From IMG/VR virus record IMGVR_UViG_3300032267_000592, positions 21,667 to 85,666 of that record: a stretch of DNA of 64,000 nt. The stretch is one strand, 5' to 3'. Positions 3,640 to 56,221 of the stretch are shown here, piece by piece (position 1 is the first letter of the stretch; every line of letters begins with the position of its first letter). Under the pieces are notes generated by a model. That model saw only the letters and a list, made by a program, of their open reading frames with translations. It did not search any database and had not been told where the DNA came from. This stretch comes from a virus. A program made the position numbers and the translations under genes.

Positions 3640-4313
3640 AAATAGCAGTTTGTTTATCTGGACAACCAAGACATTTAGATTTAGGTATAAAAAATATATT
3701 AGATGTATTTTCACAATATAATGTAGATTATTTTGTTCATACGTGGTGGGATGACAATTTTAAAAACCAAAAAAGTAATATTAATGGCGGTAGAAGTTTT
3801 GTTTGGAAGGAAAATTCTTTAGAAAAAATAATGAATAAACTATCTCCTAAATTATTATATCATGAAGTTCCAAAAATATTTGAAACGTATGGTGGCGTTA
3901 ATTACGAAACATTAACACCAAATTCGGTGCATAGTATGTTTTATTCTATAAAAATAGCAAACGAATTAAAAAAAACACATGAAAAATTTAACAATTTTGT
4001 TTATGATATTGTTATTAGATGTAGATTTGATATTGAATTTCATTCTTTTAATTTAAATTTAAAAGAATTAGATTATAGTAAAATATATACATATCACACC
4101 GGAATAGAACAATTACCAAACGATCAATTTGCAATATCTAATTCTAGTAATATGGATTATTATTCTCAGTTATATGATAATTTAAAATGTTATTATGACG
4201 AAGGATTTACTGGATTTATAGGGGAAAGATTATTAAATTATCATTTAAGAAAAAAAAATTTAACTAAGTTTACAAACGATAACGAGCTAATAAATAATAT
4301 TATAAAAATATGA
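3636..4313 (+). CDS. putative glycan-modifying protein, paralog 1 (KIAVCLSGQPR family)
   Basis: MKIAVCLSGQPR, YFVHTW, SMFYS, YDIVIRCRFD and NDQFA motifs, shared with two paralogs in the cluster. Confidence 0.55.
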   Translation: MKIAVCLSGQPRHLDLGIKNILDVFSQYNVDYFVHTWWDDNFKNQKSNINGGRSFVWKENSLEKIMNKLSPKLLYHEVPKIFETYGGVNYETLTPNSVHSMFYSIKIANELKKTHEKFNNFVYDIVIRCRFDIEFHSFNLNLKELDYSKIYTYHTGIEQLPNDQFAISNSSNMDYYSQLYDNLKCYYDEGFTGFIGERLLNYHLRKKNLTKFTNDNELINNIIKI

Positions 4314-4870
4314 ATATGATAGATTATAAAACATTAATACCAAAAGAAGAAATTGTAATAGTTCAAATAGGATCACATGATGGAATTGTAGGAGAAGAAT
4401 ATGGACTACAAGAAATATTAGATAATCATTCAAATTTTAAATTATTTTTAATTGAACCTATTCCTCAATTTTTTAATAATCTTACTAATGTATATGGTAA
4501 ATATGGTGAAAAAATTACATATTGCAATTTTGCAATAACAGATATTAACGGTAAAACCAGAATGGTCGAACAGGGGGGAATGTCAAGAATAGATCATAAT
4601 TATGGAAGTTTAGAAGTTAATTCTTTAGATTGGGATACTTTTTTAAATTTATATAACATAAAAAATATCGATTTACTATTAATCGACTGTGAAGGATATG
4701 AATTTAATATATTACAACAGATTAATTATGATAAATGCAGACCAAAAGTAATACGTTATGAGTATATGCATATTGGTGATAAAGAAGGATGTGATAATTT
4801 TATCACGTCCAAAAACTATAATATAGATTATTGTATACACGATCATACGTATAATAAAATAGCATATTAG
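4310..4870 (+). CDS. FkbM-family methyltransferase
   Basis: VQIGSHDG, LIEP and IDLLLIDCEGYEFNIL motifs. Confidence 0.85.
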   Translation: MNMIDYKTLIPKEEIVIVQIGSHDGIVGEEYGLQEILDNHSNFKLFLIEPIPQFFNNLTNVYGKYGEKITYCNFAITDINGKTRMVEQGGMSRIDHNYGSLEVNSLDWDTFLNLYNIKNIDLLLIDCEGYEFNILQQINYDKCRPKVIRYEYMHIGDKEGCDNFITSKNYNIDYCIHDHTYNKIAY

Positions 4871-4873
4871 TTC

Positions 4874-5596
4874 ATGAAAGTTGCTCTTTGTTTTTATGGT
4901 CAACCTAGATTTATAAATAACTTAAATTCTTATAAATCATATAAAGAATATATATACGGGCAAAGCGACGTAGACGTATTTTCACATTATTGGTTCGATC
5001 AAAATGATAATAAGTTTTCAACTTCCGATTGGAGCAGCATTCACGAAAATTATGTATATGAAGATACTGAAAATTTAATTAAATCTTTATATAACCCAGT
5101 AAAGTATATCGCAGACTCAAGAAATTTTTTAAAATACGAAGATGTAAAAGATATAGTTAAAAATTTAAATTATTTTAGTGTAAATAATTTTTATAATTTA
5201 CAATCTCATTTATATTCTTACGAACAAAATTTTAAATTATTATCACAACACATAGAAAATACTAAACAAAAATATGATTTTGTAATAATAAGTAGATATG
5301 ATTTAAAAATAACAGACTTTCCAAATCTTAATACATTATCTAAAAATAAAGTATATGTAAATGGGTTTGGTGGAAATAATTTCACCGACGCTATTCTTAT
5401 TTTAGATCCCATTTTTATAAACAGTTTTAATGCATATTCTAAATTTAGAGAGATATCTAATATAACTCCAATTTTTACGTCTGAAGAATACAAAAAACAA
5501 TGTTTTTTATTAACTAATTCTATTGAGGATTTTTCTTTTATAAAATTAAGAGGAGGATTACTACGAAATCAAACTGATACCGTTGGACAATTTTAA
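4874..5596 (+). CDS. putative glycan-modifying protein, paralog 2
   Basis: MKVALCFYGQPR, VFSHYW, SHLYS and YDFVIISRYD motifs. Confidence 0.55.
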   Translation: MKVALCFYGQPRFINNLNSYKSYKEYIYGQSDVDVFSHYWFDQNDNKFSTSDWSSIHENYVYEDTENLIKSLYNPVKYIADSRNFLKYEDVKDIVKNLNYFSVNNFYNLQSHLYSYEQNFKLLSQHIENTKQKYDFVIISRYDLKITDFPNLNTLSKNKVYVNGFGGNNFTDAILILDPIFINSFNAYSKFREISNITPIFTSEEYKKQCFLLTNSIEDFSFIKLRGGLLRNQTDTVGQF

Positions 5597-21378: not shown

Positions 21379-22123
21379 AACGATTAAAATACAAAAAAAT
21401 TCCTTACATAAATTATTAAAACCAGTAAACAGAATAACCGAAAGCTGTGTAATTAGATCAGGTTTAAATAATATCTATACTGTTTGCTCATCCAGCGACA
21501 ATAGTGTTATTTTATATGCTAAGACTGATACATCTGATCAGTTAGACAATGTAAAATTTAATTTAATTAACATTAAAAAATTTTTAAATGGGCTGGACTG
21601 CTTGGGTGATCTTGGTGAATTTAGCATGGTTTATGACACAAACAGCATCACTTGTAATAGTATCGATGACTCTAATGGAGAAAATACATATTTTAAATAT
21701 CATTTAGTGGATGACAATATCATTAAAGAGTCTCCGATTGATGTAGAATATATTGCTACGTTAAAATTTGATACAATTTTTGAAATACCATCTTCAAAAA
21801 TAAAACAAATCATGTCTGCATATTCTTATGTTGATAACGTAAATAAAATTTACTTTTATACGAAGGATGGAAAAGTACATGCGGAAATAAATGATAAAAC
21901 TATGCAAAACATTGATAATGTATCATTAACCGTTTCGTCTAATTACGATGGAGATGAAATATTGATACCACTATCATTGAAAATAGAAATATTTAAAAGT
22001 TTATCTTTAACGAAAAATTCTATAAAGGTTAAATTGAATAATGAACATAAAGTTTTCATATTTCAAACTCAAGAAGATGAGAATACCGAATTAAAATATA
22101 TAATTTCAGCACTTGTTAAATAA
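21371..22123 (+). CDS. gp45: sliding clamp (T4 gp45/PCNA-like)
   Basis: 250 aa with a two-domain beta-rich clamp pattern (VILYAK...IKKFL...LKYIISAL C-terminus), in the replication block. Confidence 0.7.
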   Translation: MSKTIKIQKNSLHKLLKPVNRITESCVIRSGLNNIYTVCSSSDNSVILYAKTDTSDQLDNVKFNLINIKKFLNGLDCLGDLGEFSMVYDTNSITCNSIDDSNGENTYFKYHLVDDNIIKESPIDVEYIATLKFDTIFEIPSSKIKQIMSAYSYVDNVNKIYFYTKDGKVHAEINDKTMQNIDNVSLTVSSNYDGDEILIPLSLKIEIFKSLSLTKNSIKVKLNNEHKVFIFQTQEDENTELKYIISALVK

Positions 22124-51576: not shown

Positions 51577-52551
51577 ATGATTTTCGAAGAACAAATATCG
51601 CGCAAACCAAACAATTATCCTTGGACAGAAAAATTTATTGAAAGTATGCACAATGGATTTTGGACAGATAAAGAGTTTTCATTTAAGTCTGATGTTCAAC
51701 AATTTAAAGTTAGTTTAACAGATCAAGAACGAGAAATAATAATACGAACATTATCTGCAATCGGACAAATTGAAATTGCCGTAAAATCTTTTTGGTCAAA
51801 GCTTGGTGAGAATCTCCCACACCCATCACTACAAGACTTGGGGTACGTTATGGCTAATACAGAAGTCATCCATAATAATGCTTATGAGCGCCTAATTTCA
51901 ACTCTTGGACTGGAAGATGTATTTGAAAATAATCTAAAATTAGATTGGATTCAAGGTAGAGTCAAATATCTCAAAAAATATACCCACCGCTATTATAAAG
52001 ATTCAAAGAAACAATATGTTTATGCATTGACTCTTTTTACTTTATTTGTTGAAAATGTTTCTCTGTTTTCTCAATTCTATGTAATCAATTGGTTTGCTCG
52101 TTTTAAAAATGTTCTTAAAGATACGGATCAACAAGTAAAATATACACGAAACGAAGAAAATATTCATGGTATGGTGGGTGCTCAAATTATTAACACCATT
52201 AGAGAAGAATATCCAGAATTGTTTGATGATGAATTTGTAAAAAAAATTATTGCCGAAGCTAAAGAAGCATATGAAGCAGAAGCAAAAATTATAGATTGGA
52301 TGATAAATGGAATTAAAGAAGATGGTCTTAGTGCTGTTATTCTTAAAGAATTTGTTAAAAATAGAATCAATGAATCCCTTAAAATGATTGGATTTCCTGC
52401 TGCATTTGAGATTGACAAAGATATTATATCGTCTACAATGTGGTTTACAGAGGAATTATTGGGAAACAATATGGTTGATTTTTTTAGTTCCAGACCCACA
52501 GAATACTCTAAAAAATCACAATGTTTTGATGAAGACGCATTATTCGGTTAA
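51577..52551 (+). CDS. nrdB: ribonucleotide reductase class I beta subunit (class Id/NrdBi-like)
   Basis: Metal ligands QIEIAVK, EVIH..AY, ENVSLFSQF and EENIH; C-terminal DFFSSRPTEY. Confidence 0.95.
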   Translation: MIFEEQISRKPNNYPWTEKFIESMHNGFWTDKEFSFKSDVQQFKVSLTDQEREIIIRTLSAIGQIEIAVKSFWSKLGENLPHPSLQDLGYVMANTEVIHNNAYERLISTLGLEDVFENNLKLDWIQGRVKYLKKYTHRYYKDSKKQYVYALTLFTLFVENVSLFSQFYVINWFARFKNVLKDTDQQVKYTRNEENIHGMVGAQIINTIREEYPELFDDEFVKKIIAEAKEAYEAEAKIIDWMINGIKEDGLSAVILKEFVKNRINESLKMIGFPAAFEIDKDIISSTMWFTEELLGNNMVDFFSSRPTEYSKKSQCFDEDALFG

Positions 52552-52562
52552 TTATTTTTTAA

Positions 52563-52985
52563 ATGGATATATCAGTAATAAAAAAAGCAATTTCTTCGGA
52601 AATTAAAAAAACTTTATATGGATGTTTTTGTTTTGAGTGTGGAAGTAAAAAAGAATTACACCAACATCACGTAATTCCTAAAAGCTTGGGTGGTATGAAT
52701 ACGATCTCTCTTTGTTCGAAATGTCATTCAAAAATACATAATCTGAATTTTAGAGATCATAGCATTTTAATAAAAAAAGGATTGGAAAAATCAAAACAAG
52801 CTGGTATTATCTTAGGAAGACCTAAAAACAGTGGATATTCCGATAATGAAGTATTAGATAAACATAATGATGTTTTATCGGAATTAAAAATGGGTTGCAG
52901 TATTAGAAAAACTGCTAAAAAATTAAATAAAGGAACTTCGACAGTACAGAGAGTTAAAAGACTCTTAAATAAAAATAATTTATGA
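52563..52985 (+). mobile_element. HNH endonuclease with resolvase-type HTH (free-standing homing endonuclease)
   Basis: CFECG...HHVIPKSLGG.NTISLCSKCHSKIH, then GLEKSKQAGIILGRP and HTH SIRKTAKKLNKGTSTV; sits between nrdB and nrdA. Confidence 0.8.
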
Positions 52986-54634
52986 CAAACAAATACGAAT
53001 GGCTAAACAAAGACTCACGAAAATTTCTCGAAAGAGGTTATTTGTTAGAGGGAGAAACAGCAGAACAAAGAATTAGAGATATTGCAGAAACAGCAGAAAA
53101 ATATTTAAATTCAGAAGGATTTGCTGATAAATTTGAAGATTATATGTCTAGAGGATTTTTTTCCTTATCAAGCCCAATCTGGTCAAATTTCGGAAGAAAG
53201 AGAGGTCTTCCAATCTCATGCTTTGGTTCATACATTCCAGACACTATGGAAGGAATCATGGAAAAGGTTTCGGAAACCGCTGTGATGACAAAACATGGTG
53301 GTGGAACATCTGCTTATTTTGGTGGGCTTCGTGGAAGAGGAACTCCAATTTCGTCTGGTGGAGAATCTACGGGTTCTGTACATTTCATGGAGTTGTTTGA
53401 TAAACTAATGAATGTTGTTTCTCAAGGAAATGTTCGCAGGGGGTCGTTTGCTGCATATCTCCCAATTGATCATCCAGACATTGAAGAGTTTTTAAAAATC
53501 AAATCTGAAGGATGTGACATCCAAGATATATCAATCGGAGTATCAGTTTCGGATGAATGGATGAAAAAAATGATTGATGGTGATAAAAACGCTCGTAAAA
53601 TTTGGGTTCTTGTTATCAAGAAGCGTTTTGAATCTGGTTATCCGTATATTTTCTTTAGTGATAATGCTAACAACCAAGCACCACAAATTTATAAAGATAA
53701 AGGAATTAAGATTAATAATTCCAATCTTTGTTCAGAAATTATGCTTTCTAATTCGGAAGATGAATCTTTCGTGTGCGATCTTTCTTCTCTAAATTTAGAA
53801 ACATGGGAAGAATGGACTTGTGATACTGTTGAAGTTTTAGTTTATTTCTTGGATGCTGTAATGTCGGAATTTATTGAAAAAACTGAAGGGATGAAGTTCA
53901 TGGAAGCACCTAGAAAGTTTGCTATGAATCAAAGAGCATTAGGGGTTGGTGTTTTAGGTTGGCATTCTTTGTTACAATCCAAGATGATTGGATTTGAATC
54001 AATGGAAGCAAAGATGCTAAACAATCAAATTTGGGGAGATATTAGAAAACGTGCTGACTATGCGACAAGGTTTTTAGCACAAAATTTTGGAAATGCTCCG
54101 ATTTACGAAGGAACTGAATATACGAGAAGAAACACAACGACTCTTGCAGTTGCTCCCACCACATCATCTAGTTTTATTCTTGGGCAAGTATCTCCTAGTA
54201 TCGAACCATTGAATAGTAACTATTATGTTCGAGATTTGGCTAAAGGTAAGTTTACATATAAAAATCCTTATCTAAAAAAACTATTGAAAATAAAAAATCA
54301 AGATAATGATGAAATTTGGAAATCGATATTAATTCGCGGTGGTTCTGTTCAACATTTAGAATTTCTTTCTGAACACGAAAGAGATGTATTTAAAACGTTT
54401 GAAGAAACCTCACAAAAAGAAATTATAATACAAGCAGCATCTCGTCAGCGTTATATTGATCAAGGTCAAAGTTTAAATATGTTAATCCCAGCAGGAACAC
54501 CACCAAAAGCAGTTAATGAATTGATTATATTTGCATGGGAACAAGGAATTAAAAGTCTTTATTATCAAAGATCAACAAATCCGGCTCAGACTTTAGCCAG
54601 AAATATAATGACTTGCAAAAGTTGTGAAGGTTAA
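52982..54634 (+). CDS. nrdA: ribonucleotide reductase class I alpha subunit, no ATP cone
   Basis: PISCF, GGGTS, RRGS, SNLCSE, VCDL, APTTSSS, DQGQS, KSLYYQR and C-terminal CKSC motifs. Confidence 0.97.
   Translation: MTNKYEWLNKDSRKFLERGYLLEGETAEQRIRDIAETAEKYLNSEGFADKFEDYMSRGFFSLSSPIWSNFGRKRGLPISCFGSYIPDTMEGIMEKVSETAVMTKHGGGTSAYFGGLRGRGTPISSGGESTGSVHFMELFDKLMNVVSQGNVRRGSFAAYLPIDHPDIEEFLKIKSEGCDIQDISIGVSVSDEWMKKMIDGDKNARKIWVLVIKKRFESGYPYIFFSDNANNQAPQIYKDKGIKINNSNLCSEIMLSNSEDESFVCDLSSLNLETWEEWTCDTVEVLVYFLDAVMSEFIEKTEGMKFMEAPRKFAMNQRALGVGVLGWHSLLQSKMIGFESMEAKMLNNQIWGDIRKRADYATRFLAQNFGNAPIYEGTEYTRRNTTTLAVAPTTSSSFILGQVSPSIEPLNSNYYVRDLAKGKFTYKNPYLKKLLKIKNQDNDEIWKSILIRGGSVQHLEFLSEHERDVFKTFEETSQKEIIIQAASRQRYIDQGQSLNMLIPAGTPPKAVNELIIFAWEQGIKSLYYQRSTNPAQTLARNIMTCKSCEG
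54503..54634 (+). repeat. nrdA 3' end, copy 1 of a diverged 132-nt direct repeat
   Basis: Encodes PKAVNELIIFAWEQGIKSLYYQRSTNPAQTLARNIMTCKSCEG*; the second copy is at 55358-55489. Confidence 0.9.
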
Positions 54635-54648
54635 GTGTAAGTATTATC

Positions 54649-55356
54649 ATGAGAAATGATACCTTAACAACGGAAATTTTTATTAAAAAAGCATATATTA
54701 AACATAATAACACATATGATTATTCTAAAACAGAATATAAAGGTAGAAAAGAAAAATTAATAATAATATGTAAAATTCACGGAGAATTTGAACAACGAGC
54801 GGGAAATCATTTACAAGGACAAGGTTGTAAATTATGTGGGCTTAAAAACATGTCCGAAAAAATAAAAATTTGGAATAAAGATGATGATACGTTTATAAAA
54901 GAAAATTATTTAAAAATTGGAGCACCTTATTGTGCCAAAGTTTTAAATAAAACTTTAAATTCAATTTATCATAGAGTTAGAATTTTAAAAATAAAGAAAA
55001 ACTCTAAAAAATTAAATCATCCGTTTATTTCTGGTAAAATATGGTCTAATCTGGTAGCAAACTCTAAAAATAGAAAATTAAATCTAAAGATAACACCAGA
55101 TGACATTTATCAAAAATTTTTACAGCAAAATAAGAAATGCGCTTTGAGCGGTTTAGATATATCTTTAACATTTGATACAAAAACTAATACAGCTTCTGTA
55201 GATAGAATAGACTCTAAACAACATTATACTAAAGATAATATACAGATAGTCCACAAAATAATAAATCAATGCAAAATGGATTTAAATGATTCTGATTTTT
55301 ATAAATTTTGCAAATCAGTTTATTTCAACTTAAAAGAAAAATATGAAAATAAATAA
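54649..55356 (+). mobile_element. putative homing endonuclease (zinc ribbon plus HNH-like nuclease)
   Basis: YDYSK...IICKIHGEFEQ...HLQGQGCKLC; C-terminal QNKKCALSG...SVDRIDS...YTKDNIQIV...N..K; GTAAGTA 5 nt upstream. Confidence 0.8.
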
Positions 55357-55489
55357 ACCAAAAGATGTAAATGAACTTATGATTTTTGCTTGGGAACAAG
55401 GAATTAAGTCTTTATATTATCAACGCAGTGCAAATCCCGCACAAGAACTTGCAAGATCTATAATGACATGTAAATCATGTGAAGCGTAA
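55343..55489 (+). pseudogene. duplicated nrdA C-terminal fragment (intact 48-aa ORF; remnant or expressed peptide)
   Basis: MKINK-PKDVNELMIFAWEQGIKSLYYQRSANPAQELARSIMTCKSCEA*; 37/43 aa identical to the NrdA C-terminus by manual alignment; absent from the ORF track. Confidence 0.85.
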
Positions 55490-55534
55490 CTTATAATATT
55501 TGTTAAATAAAAAGATAAGTATAAATTAAATATC

Positions 55535-56074
55535 ATGTATTCAAATCAAAAAGATCAAATTAGTTTAGAAGAAGCTTATAGGAATGTTCATAATGACACT
55601 ATAAACGAAGATGCAAACGAGACTATAGGCGGTAGTATCCTTTACGGCACTTTGCTTCTTCCCATTCTTATAGATTATTTAGCTAAAAAATACCCACAAG
55701 TTGGTCAAAAATTATCTAGTATTAAAGATTATTTGAAAAATAAAATTTCTAGCGATGAAACATTAAATACAAAAAAACAAAACGCAGATGAACATGGGGG
55801 AGAAGGCGCTACGGATTATTACAATGATTTAAATAAAAAAATAGCAATGAATATAAAAGATGATCAAACATTTAGAAGTGCTATAGACAATGCTTATGAA
55901 AAGACCATATTACAAGATATAGTTAATCTTTTACCTAAAAATTTAACAAATAAAAATGAGCAACAAGCTAAAATAGAATTAAATAAAAACATACAGCAAG
56001 ATGTTGCCACAAAAACACAAGATCAGAAAAGAAAAGAAATGGGACTTCCACCCGTACCAACAATCAGAGGATAA
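55535..56074 (+). CDS. hypothetical late protein (putative head-internal)
   Basis: KDQISLEEAY N-terminus shared with ORF 48863-49105; one hydrophobic segment; ATAAGTA upstream. Confidence 0.65.
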   Translation: MYSNQKDQISLEEAYRNVHNDTINEDANETIGGSILYGTLLLPILIDYLAKKYPQVGQKLSSIKDYLKNKISSDETLNTKKQNADEHGGEGATDYYNDLNKKIAMNIKDDQTFRSAIDNAYEKTILQDIVNLLPKNLTNKNEQQAKIELNKNIQQDVATKTQDQKRKEMGLPPVPTIRG

Positions 56075-56077
56075 TAT

Positions 56078-56221
56078 ATGGCAGGAAAAGGTGATAAACC
56101 AAGACCAGTAAACAAAAAAATATATAATAGCAATTACGACGATATTAATTTTGAATTAAATCAAAAAAGTAATCAAATGGAAATAAAAAATAAAAACGGC
56201 AAAAAAACATATAAATATTAA
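56078..56221 (+). CDS. small hypothetical protein (47 aa)
   Basis: MAGKGDKPRPVNKKIYNSNYDDINF...; fills the intergenic gap; below the ORF-track cutoff. Confidence 0.6.
   Translation: MAGKGDKPRPVNKKIYNSNYDDINFELNQKSNQMEIKNKNGKKTYKY

Follow-up and report, generated by a model that had tools for sequence, protein, structure and literature searches.

In this study, we analyzed a stretch of viral DNA of 64,000 nucleotides (nt), hereafter the window, which corresponds to positions 21,667–85,666 of the IMG/VR virus record IMGVR_UViG_3300032267_000592. In this window, the gene for the large subunit of ribonucleotide reductase (RNR), nrdA, is followed by an endonuclease-like open reading frame (ORF) of 235 amino acids (aa) and then by a second copy of the nrdA 3' end. 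We found that the copy behind the ORF is the former end of the phage's own gene, and that the end now carried by nrdA, together with about 310 nt before it, is foreign. Intronless homing very probably produced this layout, the mobile element being a free-standing endonuclease gene whose normal place is directly behind an RNR gene. The parent record is a metagenome assembly of 85,666 nt with an estimated completeness of ~40%, and the runs holding the window sequence were freshwater and lake metagenomes. All features described below lie on the + strand of the window, and their positions are counted from its first letter.

The last 132 nt of nrdA (copy A, 54503–54634) recur at 55358–55489 (copy B), as had been noticed in the initial annotation. 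The two copies are identical at 95 of 132 nt and 37 of 43 residues, and both of them end in TAA. This similarity is far beyond chance: when NrdA was searched against its own 85,666-nt record, copy B was found at E = 4.7e-20, a flank-versus-flank tblastn comparison returned the repeat at E = 3e-21, and copy B matched PHROG NrdA families (E 1e-7 to 5e-9). The motifs SLYYQRS and CKSC, which we take to be the radical-relay tyrosines and the redox tail of class Ia RNR, respectively, are present in both copies. The similarity stops at 54503/55358, and the codons upstream of these positions are unrelated. A comparison of codons gave 20 identical sense codons, 17 synonymous differences (including AGT/TCT, AGA/CGC and TCA/AGT) and 6 residue-changing differences. 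These counts were used in place of the Nei-Gojobori dN, which is inflated here by codon-block switches of Ser, Arg and Leu. The synonymous sites are near saturation (proportion of synonymous differences, pS, 0.68) and the longest run identical between the copies is 17 nt. The codon differences described earlier as heavy synonymous recoding are real, but 17 versus 6 codons is the pattern of ordinary divergence between two nrdA lineages and not of a special recoding.

The origin of each copy was analyzed using homologous loci from IMG/VR. The searches with the whole NrdA, its last 150 residues and the nuclease protein contributed 80, 80 and 6 loci, respectively, and resulted in a set of 165 loci, 150 of which had a full-length nrdA (107 distinct sequences). 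The nrdA end was present in 159 loci, and among these the window alone had two nrdA ends. The three closest relatives with an uninterrupted nrdA (L001, L002 and L003) were identical to copy B at 125, 119 and 110 of the 132 nt, and to copy A at 95, 94 and 88 nt, respectively. An alignment with the uninterrupted relatives had been suggested before as the way to tell the copies apart, and copy B indeed groups with these relatives, being nearer than copy A in all of the 26 loci with the highest whole-gene identity (L001–L026). When all 79 loci measured were considered (L031 was dropped as too short), B was nearer in 66 and A in 10, with three ties. Only 6 synonymous differences and 1 residue change separate copy B from the nrdA end of L001, and the homology of copy B to the relatives ends at the stop codon. 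Because copy B is far closer than copy A to the ends of the nearest relatives, it is the phage's own former nrdA end, a native remnant of 43 codons and a stop.

The change of ancestry lies inside nrdA, well before copy A. The 5' part of the gene shares 90.7–93.5% nt identity with L001–L003, whereas the 3' part shares 71–74%. Along the gene, segments of 60 nt were mostly identical to these relatives at 50–60 positions up to 54181 and at 37–49 positions from 54182 on. A two-rate likelihood scan against L001–L003 placed the breakpoint at 54193–54202, with a support interval of 54178–54220 and twice the log-likelihood difference (2dlnL) of 75–139. Past the breakpoint, the distance of the window to its relatives (22–36% per 60 nt) equals the distance of these relatives to other nrdA lineages. 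The nrdA ORF (52982–54634, 550 aa, no ATP cone) is a hybrid of a native part (52982–54192, residues 1 to ~404) and a foreign tract, which continues in frame and includes copy A and the stop codon (54193–54634). Since this tract is about equally distant from all 107 distinct nrdA genes, with best matches of 77% at the nt level and 85% aa identity for its 150 residues, it comes from an unsampled lineage. It is probable that about 440 nt of nrdA, the spacer behind it and the 235-aa ORF all came from this donor. The earlier proposal that the nuclease arrived with its own nrdA end and displaced the old one agrees with this result, copy B being native and copy A plus the ~310 nt before it foreign. 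The replaced length had been underestimated, however, as it is ~440 nt rather than the 132 nt of copy A.

The hybrid NrdA (native residues 1 to ~404, foreign residues ~405–550) looks functional from its conserved positions. Its ORF is intact. Of the highly conserved columns, 181 of 183 are retained in the native part and 70 of 72 in the foreign part, and the changes in the four missed columns are all conservative or near-conservative. The protein is a class I RNR alpha subunit, with matches to Ribonuc_red_lgC (E 5.4e-97) and Ribonuc_red_lgN (30.6 bits, cut-off 28), that is, to both the barrel and the all-alpha models, and with nrdB located upstream. Two of the sampled loci have altered nrdA tails. 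L018 has SLYDQRS for SLYYQRS, in which the tyrosine pair is changed in an otherwise invariant tail, and L032 has FAWGQGIK for FAWEQGIK. These changes could be errors or inactive alleles.

Independent data were obtained from Logan contigs of four runs from four studies (designated X2, X3, X6 and X7), which were compared with positions 53600–56100 of the window. It should be noted that depth in this comparison means contigs and carries no abundance information, and that uncovered parts prove nothing. Contig 14 of X3 (4434 nt) is continuous over 53909–55489, with 69 differences and 2 gaps. Contig 21 of X6 (995 nt) covers 53984–54974 and spans both the breakpoint and the nrdA/nuclease junction, and the nuclease/remnant junction is crossed by X6 contig 22 (54954–55420) and X7 contig 30 (55024–55452). 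The X2 contigs, which come from a 2017 study, match the window exactly at 54162–54618, 55080–55249 and 55471–56100. In addition, seven further proteins of the same 90% protein cluster as the 235-aa protein were found on other contigs of 1,007 to 80,914 nt. An assembly chimera had been named in the initial annotation as an outcome that would overturn its reading; because the junctions are spanned by contigs from three other studies (X3, X6 and X7), the region is not such a chimera.

Empty alleles were identified in the same data. Contig 15 of X3 follows native-type nrdA over 54383–54480 (17 differences) and, after 19 native letters, passes directly to 55355–55449, where it is of the B type (3 differences in 95 nt). 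Three contigs of X6 join 54438 to 55354–55358. The nuclease cassette is a presence/absence polymorphism in nature, with filled and empty alleles occurring together in X3 and X6. Past 55489, X3 contig 14 runs for 2852 nt without a match to the window, and its first 30 letters past the remnant stop match at 27 positions the sequence behind the nrdA stop of L001. The remnant in the X3 genome is still joined to the native downstream gene, as expected of a cassette dropped into an L001-like genome.

The nuclease ORF (54649–55356) is separated from the nrdA stop by a spacer of 14 nt (between 54634 and 54649). Its other end lies in an A-rich junction between cassette and remnant (55347–55357), which holds the nuclease stop codon and shows a 6-nt indel polymorphism. 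Homology to the native alleles starts at 55347–55355 and ends exactly at the stop at 55489, and the joint itself is not placeable to the base. At the corresponding place, the native alleles read IPPNTKPKD and the foreign tract reads IPAGTPPKA. The contigs of X6 and X7 have 6 extra letters behind 55349/55350, by which the nuclease tail YENK becomes YENGTK. The latter is also the tail of the homologs P0001, P0124, P0126 and P0127, and other close homologs end in YEKKTK or YENKTTSDER. The nuclease ORF thus ends within junction sequence resembling the native N/G-T-K codons. These tails suggest, although they do not prove, that the close homologs may sit at the same place. Another member of the same 90% cluster, P0125, has an N-terminus (MSVSII) ahead of the normal start that reads like the translated 14-nt spacer, a hint that its contig may also have an nrdA stop just upstream.

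The 235-aa ORF matched PHROG families of endonucleases, endonuclease VII and HNH endonucleases (E 2e-15 to 9e-10), and for its C-terminal half the nearest Atlas cluster was 'HNH endonuclease family protein' (score 0.93, a lead only). The 23 aligned homologs (52–97% identity) have 47 invariant columns and a C-H-C-C set in the N-terminal part. Two modules could be recognized, an N-terminal Cys/His module of the DNA-binding type and a divergent HNH/EndoVII-like C-terminal module. No Pfam model matched the ORF at its curated cut-off. HNH-clan models were absent from its matches even at E up to 10, and from those of all 23 aligned homologs when E up to 1 was allowed. CapR was matched by 1 of the 23 (E 0.076), and PF05265 is given for all nuclease matches in the precomputed list of the protein database. 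Since no curated HNH or Endonuclease_7 model was reached, we regard the protein as a putative homing endonuclease that may be called HNH-like, and do not file it as a member of the HNH or EndoVII families. The GC (guanine and cytosine) content across 54600–55350, the nuclease gene, is 0.24–0.25 versus 0.31–0.40 in nrdA.

The distribution of this family was also analyzed. Among cultured phages, 638 records matched the 235-aa protein and none of them covered at least 80% of it, the two halves occurring separately. The annotations of these ORFs include endonuclease, homing endonuclease and GIY-YIG nuclease, and up to 11 matching places per record were present among the 30 records listed. No close DNA relative of the window was found in cultured phages. 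The 165 IMG/VR loci contained no full-length nuclease relatives and partial matches in 9; the IMG/VR protein search with the nuclease returned 6 partial relatives only, and a 26-nt exact pattern from the nuclease gene had no match. Scans of metagenomes and genomes yielded relatives of at most 51% identity; as records very close to the window may be missing from the collections searched, the lack of closer ones is no proof of absence. In all six metagenome loci with enough upstream flank, the distant full-length relatives (39–51% identity) were located directly 3' of an RNR gene (L174 was left out of this count because of too little flank). The nuclease follows an nrdA of 549/550 aa in L169 and L170 (order nrdB-nrdA-nuclease), and follows nrdB in L171, L172, L173 and L175 (order nrdA-nrdB-nuclease). 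Members of the family thus usually stand free between genes, at the 3' end of the RNR operon, and the window shows a variant whose right joint fell within the target gene.

The origin of the segments, the breakpoints, the polymorphism and the association of the family with RNR genes are direct observations, from which we infer the activity of the nuclease, its cut site, the repair route and the immunity of the invaded genome. In a mixed infection, the nuclease would have cut the nrdA of the ancestor near its 3' end. The left end would have been resected over ~300 nt and repaired from the donor, from which ~440 nt of diverged nrdA 3' end (54193–54634), the 14-nt spacer and the nuclease gene (54649–55356) would have been copied. 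Because the region 3' of nrdA is unconserved among these phages (the window shares no homology with L001–L003 past the stop codon), the right side would have been closed not by homology 3' of the gene, but at the broken nrdA end of the recipient, at the A-rich junction 55347–55357. Such a joint would leave behind the native last 43 codons (55358–55489) as a stranded orphan, and the outcome would be an apparently functional hybrid nrdA, followed by the nuclease gene and a scar. Such an outcome has been described for T4, in which one-sided homing can be completed by illegitimate repair at microhomology (PMC2988022).

The target site most likely spans native codons ~498–507, at or just upstream of the joint, because a site wholly inside the remnant, which keeps native sequence from about codon 505 on, would mean self-cutting. 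The same place is suggested by the fact that the incoming allele differs most there and that the remnant is truncated there. Neither of the two nrdA ends would then be cut after the invasion, and the incoming nrdA end would be cleavage-resistant, as was assumed earlier.

Several observations weigh against intronless homing as described here. With regard to the enzyme, no Pfam nuclease domain was found at cut-off in the 235-aa protein, DUF723 being matched in 1 of the 23 members only (E 0.0012), and a sequence search of the PDB gave no solved structure that matches it. No canonical catalytic His was found either; the conserved C-terminal motif is S-V-D-R-I-D, at a place where many HNH proteins carry D-H. 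With regard to the donor, no close match of the foreign tract was present among the 80 loci collected by the whole NrdA and the 80 collected by the foreign 150 residues, and the ancestry change at ~54193 might conceivably stem from ordinary recombination that had nothing to do with the nuclease. Because the right junction is A-rich, microhomology is indistinguishable from chance there. Moreover, a repeated flank was found around the distant nuclease relatives in 0 of 13 loci (L176, L177 and L180 were skipped, as their flanks were too short), so that the nuclease family as a whole does not share the duplication of the gene end. Finally, because the close homologs (84–97% identity) were read as proteins and not as DNA, a single insertion and many insertions are not told apart. 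As for DUF723, PMC10448857 describes it as a domain of phage homing endonucleases that is predicted to bind DNA through a zinc finger.

It is possible, though rather doubtful, that the remnant is not only a scar but also serves as the right homology arm of a portable cassette, in which the nuclease gene stands between a foreign and a native nrdA end and which homes into any related nrdA. If so, each invasion might renew the remnant from a functional end, which would explain its intactness, and the downstream genes would be irrelevant. The region behind nrdA differs between close relatives, as the lack of homology between the window and L001–L003 past the stop codon indicates, and the same cassette stands before two downstream contexts, the ORF of 179 aa in the window and an L001-type gene in the X3 contig. 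In addition, X3 contig 14 and the window are at least 96.6% identical over 54173–55489 (1317 nt, at most 45 differences), compared with at most 90.9% over the preceding 264 nt, at least 24 of the 69 differences lying within 53941–54172; the differences in this contig are known in part, and these values are bounds. No indel or stop was reported in the remnant in any overlapping contig. However, one old insertion followed by ordinary recombination of the flanks explains the same data, and the positions of the X3 differences inside the cassette are known only in part. Furthermore, the left arm next to the cut is only 72–78% identical to the native alleles over ~300 nt, and the remnant is only 132–143 nt long.

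Coming back to intronless homing with a remnant left as a scar, the question arises of whether the remnant is expressed. The downstream copy is open as described in the initial annotation, with an in-frame ATG and a 48-aa ORF (55343–55489) that overlaps the stop of the nuclease ORF and contains copy B. We consider it quite unlikely that this ORF is expressed, be it as a trans-acting YY/CxxC tail or, by frameshifting at the A-rich stop, as an extension of the nuclease. Apart from being open with an ATG, the ORF is intact in contigs from other samples, and of the differences between copy B and L001, 6 are synonymous and only 1 alters a residue. However, this low residue divergence is older than the insertion, as both B and the L001 end then belonged to functioning genes. 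The ATG falls inside the codons for the conserved K-Y-E of the nuclease, and junction sequence makes up the first five codons. Promoter-like sites are no commoner than in shuffles (26 versus 27.6), and a terminator scan likewise gave nothing above shuffles. The full-length hybrid NrdA has its own tail, with 70 of 72 conserved columns kept. In structural terms, the YY strand is part of the barrel and would hardly work as a free peptide. In the fungal parallel discussed below, the native atp6 and cox2 ends are not transcribed, according to the available text of PMC3630166. Neither the trans-acting CxxC peptide nor the swapping of two C-termini by recombination, both of which had been offered as alternatives, found support in our analysis.

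An assembly artefact, in which two co-occurring strains were stitched together into a false duplication, is very unlikely. The record is a metagenome assembly that is ~40% complete, and several nrdA alleles coexist in the same waters. On the other hand, the longest A/B identical run of 17 nt was judged too short to mislead an assembler; the X3, X6 and X7 contigs bridge the junctions, with X3 contig 14 spanning all of them; the X2 contigs match the window exactly at 54162–54618 and 55471–56100; and the 90% cluster has seven more members that are encoded on other contigs. We attach equally little probability to a local tandem duplication of the nrdA end, with divergence in place and a later insertion of the nuclease between the copies. 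The two copies are direct and in the same orientation, as this would require, but copy B is 94.7% identical to the end of a relative, whereas the identity of copy A is 72% with B and with that relative alike. An equal divergence is seen in the 310 nt before copy A, which are not duplicated; divergence in place could not have produced this, and the synonymous sites between A and B are near saturation. The least credible explanation is that copy B is a true second exon behind a self-splicing intron (54503–55357) or that the nuclease is an intein. Group I introns are frequent in phage nrd genes (available text of PMC3653736), but Rfam gave no intron family in 52400–56200 at E up to 1 (only a chance microRNA model far below its gathering score), the nrdA stop lies 14 nt ahead of the nuclease ORF, whose frame differs from that of copy B, and the non-coding sequence around that ORF amounts to only 14 nt and ~1 nt. 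The absence of both intron and intein claimed in the initial annotation is in agreement with this result, in that no Rfam intron matched and a stop codon separates nrdA from the nuclease ORF.

The closest published counterparts of this homing product appear to be the fungal mitochondrial mORFs with a foreign C-terminus, which have been described for Allomyces macrogynus atp6 and for atp6, atp9, cox2 and nad3 of Glomus sp. (PMC3630166; this and the other comparisons below refer to the available parts of the cited texts). The order of elements is the same, namely a gene body, an in-phase foreign C-terminal part, an endonuclease ORF and a native remnant, and in both cases it is the remnant, and not the inserted end, that groups with the close relatives. 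Between the two ends, the DNA has diverged strongly and the protein little, with 63.5% nt and 91% aa identity in Glomus atp6 (PMC3630166) and 72% nt and 86% aa identity in the window. In contrast with the fungal elements, the host here is a phage, the target is nrdA and the nuclease is neither of the LAGLIDADG nor of the GIY-YIG type. The window nuclease ORF is also separate from the gene (stop plus 14 nt) and out of phase with it, and filled and empty alleles occur in the same environmental samples. If the remnant served as a homology arm, as considered above, the junction itself would destroy the target site at native codons ~498–507, and the cassette would be the phage counterpart of the fungal mORFs, with both a rescue copy and immunity built in; we put this forward tentatively, with more doubt than conviction.

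Similarities with mobile nucleases of phages were also observed. The free-standing SegF, SegG and MobE of T4-type phages carry out intronless homing with co-conversion of flanking markers (PMC2988022). Like them, the window nuclease lies beside a conserved gene without intron or intein, is polymorphic and has a neighbour gene with a foreign conversion tract (PMC2988022). MobE of T4-type phages is likewise located in the RNR operon (PMC2988022); no sequence kinship between MobE and the window nuclease was found. The T4 Seg/Mob genes insert between genes via two-sided homology, with no duplicated gene end mentioned in the available text (PMC2988022), whereas in the window the right joint lies inside the target gene and the last 43 codons are duplicated. 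T4 one-sided homing provides a mechanism for a microhomology joint when homology exists on one side only, as behind nrdA in the window (PMC2988022). It was studied in an engineered td-intron system (PMC2988022), whereas the process in the window is deduced from a natural product.

Two further phage systems are comparable. In Aeromonas phage Aeh1, the insertion of mobE splits nrdA into two genes (PMC3653736, PMC2988022). As is proposed for the window, a free-standing nuclease invaded the coding region of a phage nrdA without intron or intein and the enzyme kept working; Aeh1 assembles two NrdA fragments (PMC3653736, PMC2988022), whereas the nrdA of the window remains in one piece, as the element would have brought a replacement end. 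In the mobA-gene 60 cassette of T4, added sequence travels with the nuclease and keeps an invaded essential gene working and protected from further cutting, as would also hold for the window; this cassette differs in the split of the gene, the added tails, the translational bypass and the lack of a duplicated end in the available description (bioRxiv 10.1101/2022.08.31.505936). A 2013 survey reported that no duplicated RNR genes were identified in phage genomes (available text of PMC3653736). In a non-exhaustive literature search, with subscription papers outside its scope, we found no report of a phage gene in which a homing-endonuclease cassette had substituted the end and stranded the native one behind it. 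The layout of the element is known as that of the mORF type; what is new here is its occurrence in a phage, its target nrdA and its nuclease family.

The case suggests that a selfish nuclease can enter an essential phage coding region without an intron, an intein or a split enzyme, by means of its own spare gene end. It would also mean that diverged phages exchange parts of a core metabolic gene horizontally, and the resulting chimeric NrdA matters where RNR genes serve as phylogenetic markers of viral communities. These data also define a nuclease family, unnamed until now, whose members live at the 3' ends of RNR operons. The case is unusually testable, since filled and empty alleles are present in public freshwater metagenomes, the breakpoints are located within a few tens of bases and the place of the cut is predicted.

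The remaining genes around the cassette were examined as well. Upstream of nrdA, nrdB for the RNR small subunit (51577–52551; Pfam Ribonuc_red_sm, E 2.4e-46) is followed by a free-standing HNH endonuclease ORF of 140 aa (52563–52985; Pfam HNH, E 3.7e-6, above cut-off) in the nrdB-nrdA gap, which is context and lies outside the cassette. L002 has a 245-aa GIY-YIG/NUMOD3 ORF (4239–4976) in the same gap, and L001 and L003 have none. This gap is a second hot spot for selfish nucleases, which recalls mobE in the T4 RNR operon. Downstream of the remnant, the window has the 179-aa ORF (55535–56074), which belongs to no known family. Its place behind nrdA is taken in L001 (6654–7741) and L002 by a 360-aa DNA-methylase-like gene, and relatives of the 179-aa ORF with 33–36% identity are found 450–700 nt 3' of nrdA in L013, L018 and L029.

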